From Candidatus Altimarinota bacterium (GTDB lineage Bacteria > Patescibacteriota > Gracilibacteria > UBA1369), in assembly GCA_041659405.1 (NCBI GenBank), contig JBAZYK010000006.1, positions 60,001-92,000 of the forward strand: 32,000 bases of DNA. The letters are read 5' to 3'. How positions within the stretch are numbered: the stretch's first letter is position 1; every line of letters starts with the position of its first letter. The position numbers were made by a program, and so were the translations under genes. Shown in pieces: positions 19,320 to 20,848 of the stretch. The notes under the pieces were generated by a model that worked only from the letters and a program-made list of their open reading frames with translations, ran no database searches and had not been told where the DNA came from.

Positions 19320-19580
19320 TTACAAAATAGATTCTAAAGGGAATTTTTTGGCCTTCTTAAGCTTTTTCAAGCTTGCATCCAGCTCTGTTTTAAACTCATT
19401 TTTTAACGGCAGATTTTCTTCGATTAAATCTTCAAACTCCTGTTTACTCAAAAAAATACCAATCTCCTTGCCATTTTTAACAATACGAACAATTTTGGCA
19501 TCAAGAGCTTTAGCCGGATTTTTTTGCAATTCCGAAAGCGAAACAATCTTTTCTTTGCTTAATACGGACGAGGTGGTCAT
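19320..19580 (-). CDS. Phd/YefM-type antitoxin
   Basis: 86 aa from ATG 19580: MTTSSVLSKEKIVSLSELQKNPAKALDAKIVRIVKNGKEIGIFLSKQEFEDLIE. It lies immediately upstream of the toxin. The track's longer ORF has no support. Confidence 0.8.
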   Translation of the reverse strand: MTTSSVLSKEKIVSLSELQKNPAKALDAKIVRIVKNGKEIGIFLSKQEFEDLIEENLPLKNEFKTELDASLKKLKKAKKFPLESIL

Positions 19581-19608
19581 ATAAAGTTTATAGTTAAATA
19601 CTACTATA

Positions 19609-19637
19609 AGTTTATCGTAGAATTCCCAATTAGTCAA
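19609..19637 (-). promoter_or_regulatory. Candidate promoter and operator of the toxin-antitoxin operon
   Basis: On the minus strand, TTGACT (19637-19632), a 17-nt spacer, then TAAACT (19614-19609). Downstream lie the palindrome TATAG-N10-CTATA and a duplicated AAGTTTAT (19584-19616). Confidence 0.45.
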
Positions 19638-19679
19638 CGGATAGGGCGCAAGATTCACGGGCAAATAAGTCATTATTAT

Positions 19680-19707
19680 TTGACATGTGGAAATATTTTC
19701 ATAAAAT
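19680..19707 (+). promoter_or_regulatory. Candidate promoter of the 100-aa ORF
   Basis: TTGACA (19680-19685), a 16-nt spacer, then TAAAAT (19702-19707), 21 nt upstream of ATG 19729. Confidence 0.45.
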
Positions 19708-19728
19708 GGAACCACATTATTCAAAATT

Positions 19729-20031
19729 ATGGCATTTTCACAAGAAACAATCACAGCCCTTGGTCGCGAATATGACGACGCACTAAAAGTTGTTACTGAG
19801 GTCAAACAACAAAGACGAGTACTCAAATTAGCTGGTTTACCGGGAAAAATCGATAGTGGCCCACTCACAGTTATAAGAGCTACATTAGACAGCCTCACTA
19901 AAGCTTTAGAAGGAATTAATGATCCTAATCAAGATGGCCCCAACCTTGTTGTAGCAAGATTGAGAAAAAAAGTAGGAACCTTGCAACGTTGTTTACTAGA
20001 GTTAGACCCAGTACAAAAAGAGGAAGCCTAA
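19729..20031 (+). CDS. Hypothetical 100-aa, probably helical protein
   Basis: ATG ORF with a consensus-like promoter. No family recognised. Confidence 0.45.
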   Translation: MAFSQETITALGREYDDALKVVTEVKQQRRVLKLAGLPGKIDSGPLTVIRATLDSLTKALEGINDPNQDGPNLVVARLRKKVGTLQRCLLELDPVQKEEA

Positions 20032-20063
20032 TAGAATCCATCCCGCGCAGTCAGCTCAAGCCC

Positions 20064-20091
20064 TTGCCAAATTTCAAATTCCGTATACAAT
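20064..20091 (+). promoter_or_regulatory. Candidate promoter of the RNase P RNA
   Basis: TTGCCA (20064-20069), a 16-nt spacer, then TACAAT (20086-20091). The predicted start falls at about 20098, where the P1 strand begins. Confidence 0.5.
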
Positions 20092-20097
20092 TAACAA

Positions 20098-20712
20098 GCT
20101 CTACCAGTGAATGATCGCTGCAGCTTTCTTTTCTAAAAAAAAGCATGAACGAAAAAGCTTGAAGCAAAGCGTGAATTATTTTGGGATTGGGTCTCGTGGG
20201 TCCCAATCCCAAAATAATTCCGCTACCGCGAAAAGCTTTTAAGTGAATACAATATAGGGAAAGAGAGCACCACGAGAGAAAACCGTCAGGTTGTCTCTCG
20301 TGAACTGCAGAGGAAAGTCCGAGCACCATGGAACAGGATGGCTTCTAACGGAAGCGGCTCAGCATGAAAGTGTTGAGTACGGAAAGTACCACAGAGACTA
20401 TGAAAGCTGCGCGCAAGCGTAGCCAAAGGTGAAAAGCCCAGTCGTAAAGCGTAAAATTCCAGGCCGCGGCGCAAGCCAATAAGCCAGAATGTAACGCCAG
20501 ACAGGGCGCCCCTCGGTGACGAGGAGACGTGGCAAACCCTATCCGGTGCAAGGTGGGATGGAAGAAAAAGATCAAGTTTTGTTCCAAAACCTTTTTCTGC
20601 CCACCGCACGATTTCATAGGCAACTATGAAACAAGAGAGATGATCATACTTTGTTTATGCGCCGCAAGGTGCATCAACAGAGAACAAAACTCGGCTTATG
20701 ATCTGGTAGAGC
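20098..20712 (+). ncRNA. rnpB: RNase P RNA (bacterial, type A-like specificity domain), unusually long
   Basis: GAGGAAAGTCCGAGC (20310-20324, CR-I) and ACAGAGAACAAAACTCGGCTTAT (20678-20699, CR-V). Also CGCGCAAGCG, AAGGTGAAAAG, CGTAAAGCG and GGCAAACCCTATCCGGTGCAAGG blocks. The 10-bp terminal helix pairs GCTCTACCAG (20098-20107) with CTGGTAGAGC (20703-20712). Ends are approximate. Confidence 0.85.
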
Positions 20713-20848
20713 AATATTGAAAACCAAAAATTATCGCAAAATCCATCCCCATCCGCTATACTTGCGAAGGTTTTTGAATTGCGCGACTTTGCTGCACGAC
20801 CATGCCCGCAACTTTCTCGCAAACTCCCACGCACCCTCACACCCGCAC

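Follow-up and report, generated by a model that had tools for sequence, protein, structure and literature searches.

The window, that is, the whole stretch of 32,000 nucleotides analysed here, carries on its plus strand a gene for a class A RNase P RNA (rnpB, positions 20098 to 20712), which is the sole copy in the 1.51-Mb, 98.5% complete source assembly. The gene is preceded by a sigma-70-type promoter, TTGCCA-16-TACAAT (20064 to 20091, plus strand), which matches the consensus at 10 of 12 positions and has an equivalent at the same place in a sister species (TTGCTA-17-TATAAT); transcription presumably starts at about 20097 to 20098. Both this promoter and the terminal helix P1, in which 20098 to 20107 pairs with 20703 to 20712, had been recognized in an earlier sequence-only reading of this DNA. 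P1 is formed by 10 of 10 possible base pairs, with pair probabilities of 0.88 to 1.0 in the computed fold, and its register is kept in relatives. That reading had missed P2, in which ATGATCG (20111 to 20117) pairs with TGATCAT (20641 to 20647). As the alignment with related rnpB genes confirmed, the P1-TGA-P2 register is common to most of the first 38 parsed relatives, in which the letters have changed and the pairing has been kept. The P2 pairs covary across 65 parsed RNAs, a set that leaves out 11 RNAs whose automatic parsing failed or was ambiguous, and the count is partly circular because P2 was picked by pairing. The probability of P2 was low (0.05) in an unconstrained fold, a kind of fold that ignores pseudoknots, and forcing P1 to P3 cost only ∼3 kcal/mol compared to that fold. 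The register of P1 and P2, together with the promoter directly upstream, thus gives an RNA of 615 nt.

The Rfam model for class A RNase P RNA (RF00010) matched positions 20282 to 20714 with 143.7 bits (E value of 1.7e-44), above its gathering cut-off of 100 bits, and the P1 that it proposed was forced and poor. The sequence-only reading had counted on this model to define the ends of the RNA; the match did identify the gene, but at the 5' end the true P1 is the one named in that reading, as judged by pairing and by the relatives. This is a pitfall for annotation, given that Rfam scores the gene yet sets its 5' end ∼185 nt too late.

P1, P2, P4 and the conserved blocks CR-I and CR-V are intact in the class A alignment, and the P6 pseudoknot with P16/P17, P13/P14 and P18 are present. 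CR-I lies with the 5' strand of P4 at 20310 to 20324, and CR-V with the 3' strands of P4 and P1 at 20684 to 20712, both blocks having been correctly spotted before. P6 can be formed by L17 GTTCC (20581 to 20585) and GGAAC (20330 to 20334). What had been taken for further extra helices 3' of the specificity domain proved to be ordinary parts of the molecule. Thus, the GGTGGG...CCCACC arm aligned to the RF00010 model as P15/P16/P17 (20552 to 20606), P18 with its GCAA tetraloop follows at 20612 to 20631, and the other GCAA-capped helix (20651 to 20680) was assigned from its position as P19, an optional helix that is present in the sister species too. The P13 region (20436 to 20505) is enlarged, with ∼60 nt compared to 7 in the model; this enlargement is partly common to the sister species and does not correspond to a dispersed repeat in the source genome.

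The RNA therefore resembles other class A molecules in CR-I and CR-V, in the P1-to-P19 layout, in the P4 and P6 pairings and in having an RnpA partner encoded in the genome, whereas it differs from them in its length, in a 192-nt P3 with a predicted three-way junction, in the enlarged P13, and in the absence from its sequence of the GGU motif on the 3' side of L15. Class A RNAs have a mean length of 374 nt, with a general range of 250 to 550 nt (PMC7191817), and loss of the L15 GGU is common in CPR RNase P RNAs (PMC8172020). The source genome contains one rnpB and one rnpA gene, and no PIN_5/HARP-type match indicative of a back-up enzyme was found in it. Consequently, the 615-nt RNA is probably the working RNase P and, judging by this gene content, the one that cleaves pre-tRNA.

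The span between P2 and CR-I, already suspected to hold an enlarged P3, measures 192 nt, compared with a median of 26 nt in 38 RNAs of the family and order (source included) and with 32 nt in the sister species; 181 nt are extra. P3 is closed by a CTGCAG stem whose 3' strand (20305 to 20310) had been placed correctly, whereas its 5' strand is located at 20118 to 20123 and not at 20119 to 20124; five of the six pairs showed probabilities of 0.8 to 0.9. The insert itself occupies 20124 to 20304 (181 nt, plus strand), with a right end that is sharp to within a few bases and an approximate left end. It is a palindromic, ORF-less element made up of a long and a short hairpin. The long one (∼145 nt, 20124 to 20268) consists of a basal stem, a purine-rich internal loop (GAA/GAA in this copy, GA/GA in most others) and an upper stem, and its top is the perfect 19-bp helix (20173 to 20191 with 20202 to 20220) that the sequence-only reading had described exactly. 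The apex, GGGTCTYGYGGGYCCC (20189 to 20204), is near-invariant in the repeat family described below. The short 3' hairpin (20271 to 20302), previously described as having 9 bp, does exist, with a longer stem of 14 bp that includes one mismatch (20271 to 20284 with 20289 to 20302).

The region from 20090 to 20330 folded with a z score of −10.1, and none of 200 shuffled versions folded as well. In the predicted structure, 123.6 bases of the insert pair internally and 0.9 with the rest of the RNA. On the sense strand of the insert, the longest open stretch has 43 codons; a 92-codon ORF running across it on the minus strand showed no Pfam match and was taken as a chance occurrence. The CTGCAG on both sides of the insert consists of the same letters as the P3 stem, and whether it is a target-site duplication was left undecided because the P3 stems of relatives also tend to start with CTG and to finish with CAG.

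The 181-nt insert is a copy of a dispersed repeat, and neither an intron nor a unique expansion. An iterated profile search of the source genome yielded 12 full copies, the one in rnpB included, and 3 partial ones, while the reversed genome used as a control yielded 0. The nearest genomic relative of the rnpB copy shares 85% identity with it over 172 nt. Ten of the other 11 full copies follow a tRNA gene, at a distance of no more than ∼125 nt from its CCA end, and the eleventh adjoins the 3' end of the 6S RNA gene. All 11 are arranged tail-to-tail with their RNA gene, in one orientation, so that the rnpB-sense strand runs antisense to the tRNA or 6S transcripts; it is the short hairpin that faces the 3' ends of these RNAs. 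The distance from the apex to the RNA end was 97 to 105 nt in 7 of the 11, and the corresponding distance in rnpB, up to the 3' strand of the P3 stem, is 100 nt. This constancy indicates a well-defined right end of the repeat unit, and the tRNA-linked contigs stop at 20303 to 20304, matching the right end of the insert. No terminal inverted repeat was shared in the alignment of the copies.

One of the 11 non-rnpB sites has a duplicated tRNA 3' end, and another such duplication flanks one copy in a further locus, where the repeat lies between direct duplications (∼30 nt) of the 3' end of a tRNA-Phe gene, in the manner of an integration scar (L081:4520-4790). Repeat modules belonging to one similarity network are shared by 17 of the 41 tRNA trailers in the genome, and at least two further repeat modules occur behind tRNA 3' ends (contigs C1, C2, C4, C5, C10 and C11). 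The left arm of some repeat copies (GAGGAAAGT...GAGCA) resembles CR-I.

Beyond the source genome, 24 loci emerged when named genomes were scanned for the repeat pattern, 20 of them with the full structure, the remaining 4 looking like chance matches. The full-structure loci belonged to genomes labelled as Patescibacteria (19 loci) and to a short contig binned as Nitrospirota (1 locus), and the named genomes with the repeat were mostly Peregrinibacteria, Peribacteria and Gracilibacteria, which suggests that the source organism is a patescibacterium of that class. When searched with a covariance model, 6 of the 36 genomes from the family and 11 of the 151 from the class proved to contain the repeat, at 1 to 16 copies per genome; the sister species had none, and no copy overlapped rnpB in the other genomes searched. 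Linkage to tRNA genes is confined to one sub-family (0 of 18 loci in the class-wide search), with which the rnpB copy grouped weakly (81/87) in a poorly resolved tree of copies.

In 34 copies, the apex and the AGCA/GCGA loop motifs were near-invariant, whereas the arms covaried. Thus, 89% of the alignment cells were paired, compared to 70% after shuffling, with 101 double changes compared to 30 and a covariation score of 0.51 compared to 0.17; the strand that is sense in rnpB also folded better (29 G-U versus 12 A-C oppositions, and a lower energy in 32 of the 34 copies), although all these counts overstate the significance because the copies are related. We read the conserved loop as tandem G.A pairs formed on the rnpB-sense strand in most copies. 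Searching Rfam at E values up to 5 retrieved no model of the repeat, just generic hairpins (mostly miRNA) far below their cut-offs, the repeat pattern had no matches in viral contigs, and our literature search turned up no paper that deals with this repeat or with P3 as a site where it inserts, nor one naming both "RNase P RNA" and "Patescibacteria". With 12 full copies, no coding capacity, presence and absence at an orthologous site and a patchy distribution, the family has the features of a dispersed palindromic, MITE-like repeat.

The orthologous site without the repeat is that of the sister species, in which P1, P2 and the core are the same, P3 has its 32 nt, and the gene is otherwise nearly identical. 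The insert was recovered in contigs of two other studies and is therefore not an assembly artefact: positions 20097 to 20782 are covered by a contig of another groundwater study (22 differences, 1 gap), and positions 20054 to 20338 by a contig of a wastewater study (4 differences). The wastewater run also contains an rnpB of the sister type, without the insert. The insert is thus kept by related strains and missing from the sister species, i.e., it is a derived state, and the sister species without it, the three samples with it and a defined donor family make up a clean before-and-after pair. Two pattern scans for close rnpB relatives, with or without the insert, found none in metagenomes from which near genomes may be missing.

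The match of the related strains to the window begins at 20054. Just upstream of the rnpB promoter, the window contains an orphan ORF of 100 amino acids (19729 to 20031) with no Pfam or NCBIfam match; as the contig of the related strain diverges upstream of 20054, this ORF is probably a variable insertion. On the minus strand, 19320 to 19898 holds an ORF with a weak, below-cut-off match to Phd/YefM antitoxins (E value of 1.6e-4).

The sequence-only reading had left a choice between a lineage-specific expansion and an inserted element that is later excised. The inserted element is real, as a dispersed repeat copy missing in the sister species; its later excision found no backing, there being neither an intron match nor a long sense ORF. 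Expansion is an apt word solely for the outcome, given that unrelated repeats fill P3 in different relatives. In the explanation that we propose, one copy of a non-autonomous, ORF-less palindromic repeat would have invaded the P3 loop of a class A RNase P RNA. By prediction, it folds on itself and turns P3 into a three-way junction, leaving P1, P2, P4, P6 and the specificity domain free. The protein subunit of bacterial RNase P has its binding site close to the base of P2/P3, and P3 extends with its tip directed away from the core. With a self-folding insert and an intact core, the insert is most likely a tolerated passenger, and we consider its retention as a neutral part of the RNase P RNA well favoured. 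The full 615-nt RNA would probably be made from the upstream promoter, bind RnpA and cleave pre-tRNA, with the insert being neutral.

A much less likely course is that RNase III cuts the transcribed insert without ligation, as happens with intervening sequences of 23S rRNA, which would leave a two-piece ribozyme whose parts stay joined through P1, P2 and the P3 stem. The genome does encode RNase III, and the perfect 19-bp helix of the rnpB copy is the longest uninterrupted one among 34 copies, but other copies reach 17 to 18 bp, so 19 bp is not special. A soil metatranscriptome provided two contigs of a related strain, with a depth of 2 to 2.5, that cover just 20309 to 20694, and the one near the insert ends at the P3 boundary (20309), as such a cut would produce. 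However, that contig has a depth of 2.5, comes from another strain and bears six unaligned letters at its end; its end could also reflect a strain that lacks the insert, or breakage at a strong hairpin. RNase III cutting, moreover, explains the insertion identically to the passenger reading and differs just in the fate of the insert. Comparably doubtful is a broader proposal, in which the repeat would be a structured nucleic-acid module not described before, with an apex that binds protein, and its copy in P3 would serve either as a new docking domain or as the origin of a two-piece RNase P RNA made by RNase III; P3 would in that case be a regular entry point for mobile hairpins that remodel the ribozyme in Patescibacteria.

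Domestication of the repeat, in which the apex and the G.A loop would bind a protein and the copy in P3 would give RNase P a docking site or stability, seems improbable. In its favour are the apex, near-invariant class-wide while the stems covary, the fact that the better-folding strand is the sense strand in rnpB, and four differences assigned by contig depths to the related strain, which keep or improve the fold (from −88.1 to −92.9 kcal/mol); likewise, a different long P3 has been preserved across two species of another genus. Nevertheless, the sister species does without the insert, P3 holds unrelated sequences in other lineages, in one case in the opposite orientation, and selection against misfolding would equally predict a hairpin that is kept folded.

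The two remaining explanations hardly deserve credence. An intron that splices itself or is spliced by enzymes, and is thus removed with ligation, is suggested by the group I and II introns of CPR rRNA genes (PMC11270868) and by the short helix that bounds the insert, but no Rfam intron family matched even at an E value of 5, the 181 nt are two plain hairpins, the same sequence occurs, reversed, behind tRNAs and outside any mature RNA, the one RNA run, of low depth, yielded no insert-skipping joint, the sole such joint came from a DNA run and has the P3 of the sister species in between, and precise removal would leave a 6-bp stem without a loop. A chimeric assembly at a repeat, or an origin of the dispersed copies in P3, could be argued from the mis-assemblies that repeats can cause, from a source-like run that splits into two overlapping contigs inside the insert and from the poorly resolved tree, but in two other studies the junctions lie within single contigs, the rnpB copy is at least 15% different from every other copy, and the family is present in distant genomes that have no copy in their rnpB.

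P3 was found to be enlarged repeatedly in relatives. It measured 135 to 192 nt in 5 of the first 38 RNAs, and six more P3s of 110 to 293 nt appeared among 40 genes chosen for their low model scores. These long P3s fall into several unrelated sequence families, some of them with dispersed copies; in ∼10 relatives, P3 holds unrelated repeats or, in one case, a GIY-YIG gene. A second repeat family fills P3 in five genomes (L023, L033, L035, L159 and L161, inverted in the last) and has dispersed copies too, with L055, L063 and L186 among the listed loci; at the start of P3 in 4 of these 5 RNAs there is a short element that we take to resemble the boxA of rRNA. Another long P3 is the one kept across two species of another genus. 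The lack of relatedness among the repeats that fill P3 from one relative to another speaks against a specific new function. The present case singles out P3 as a place where an essential ribozyme naturally tolerates inserts, which is of use for tagging RNase P RNA. RNAs of 601, 601 and 643 nt also occur in the lineage, so that the present 615 nt are near the top of its range and not unique.

The 643-nt RNA (L167:898-1190, minus strand, genome G178) bears in P3 an intact 85-amino-acid GIY-YIG ORF inside a hairpin, the protein being 48% identical to the small GIY-YIG protein encoded on contig C5 of the source genome. Three other RNase P RNAs, of 563 to 601 nt (L031, L036 and L160), are enlarged in the core and P19 rather than in P3. 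Two genomes of one genus (G007 and G041; 94 to 95% complete, in 120 to 170 contigs) gave no RF00010 match, and in view of their fragmentation a heavily interrupted or unassembled rnpB is possible. ARAGORN reported no tmRNA gene in the 98.5% complete source assembly, where this gene may be unassembled or interrupted by an insert.

The insert in rnpB is a real feature, and the kind of event is already known. In Rickettsia, palindromic elements (RPEs) of 105 to 146 bp are fused into the M1 RNA and tmRNA genes (Ogata et al. 2002, as reviewed in PMC2229807), and, like the present repeat, they are dispersed long-hairpin repeats of 100 to 200 nt, presumed neutral, with one copy in the RNase P RNA gene. 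RPEs serve here as an analogue by description. The lineage is another one; the present repeat prefers, in its sub-family, the 3' ends of stable RNAs; and it has an invariant apex, a G.A loop, covarying arms and two hairpins, with no clear terminal inverted repeat. Given the precedent in Rickettsia, the insertion will appear neat rather than startling to the specialist.

For CPR bacteria, diverged RNase P RNAs with greatly extended helices have been reported, without an origin for the extensions (Lui et al. 2021, PMC8172020). Those RNAs share with the present one the oversized helices and the loss of the L15 motif in Patescibacteria, whereas their extensions were not traced to repeat families and P3 was not singled out; some oversized helices of Patescibacteria RNase P RNAs are now explained as copies of dispersed hairpin repeats. 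The rRNA genes of CPR bacteria contain short insertion sequences, either ORF-less or encoding GIY-YIG proteins (PMC11270868). These are similarly non-intron inserts of less than 200 bp at the top or the base of stable-RNA stem-loops, and their GIY-YIG versions have a counterpart in the relative with such a gene in P3, but here it is RNase P RNA that harbours the insert, which is demonstrably a dispersed repeat.

Two further systems, the NTS/SRM repeats with the nuclease Ssn (PMC11893778) and the REP/RAYT elements (PMC3733652), are comparable in their oriented palindromes, patchy occurrence between species and modular clusters, and small single-domain GIY-YIG genes like Ssn are present in the same genome. 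Neither system fits the repeat, which has ∼180 nt versus their 20 to 50, and no nuclease or transposase gene flanked by it was found in the genome. For REP/RAYT, a tagged palindrome of 20 to 40 bp, the alignment showed no CGTC/GTAG tag at a length of 180 nt, and the Y1 transposase family (PF01797) had no match in the source genome. For SRM/NTS with Ssn, the apex is off the published NTS consensus (PMC11893778) and the two small GIY-YIG genes of the genome are not flanked by this repeat. A looser link between the repeat and a nuclease acting in trans may exist.

In such a scheme, the repeat, in the form of a single-stranded DNA hairpin, might be multiplied in trans through a small hairpin-recognizing nuclease of the GIY-YIG/Ssn type together with recombination. 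We hold this candidate mover only tentatively. A GIY-YIG gene abutted the repeat in 1 of 59 loci from other genomes, and no autonomous version of the repeat was detected, its neighbours being unrelated housekeeping genes (SSB, guanylate kinase, ArsR and MurB). Integration at tRNA 3' ends is an alternative route, considered because duplicated tRNA ends occur at two sites. Whatever the mover, copies would persist where a self-folding insert is harmless, namely, behind the 3' ends of stable RNAs, between genes and in peripheral helices like P3.

On contig C5 of the source genome (L065:930-1770), a 79-amino-acid GIY-YIG gene lies between duplicated 5' halves of a tRNA-Gln gene; these halves carry a different, short GC-rich palindrome, and tandem partial copies and an assembly gap come next. 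At another locus (L082:4060-4550), a tRNA-Ser gene is followed by a reversed repeat copy and by a small GIY-YIG gene that starts a few bases past the end of the repeat.
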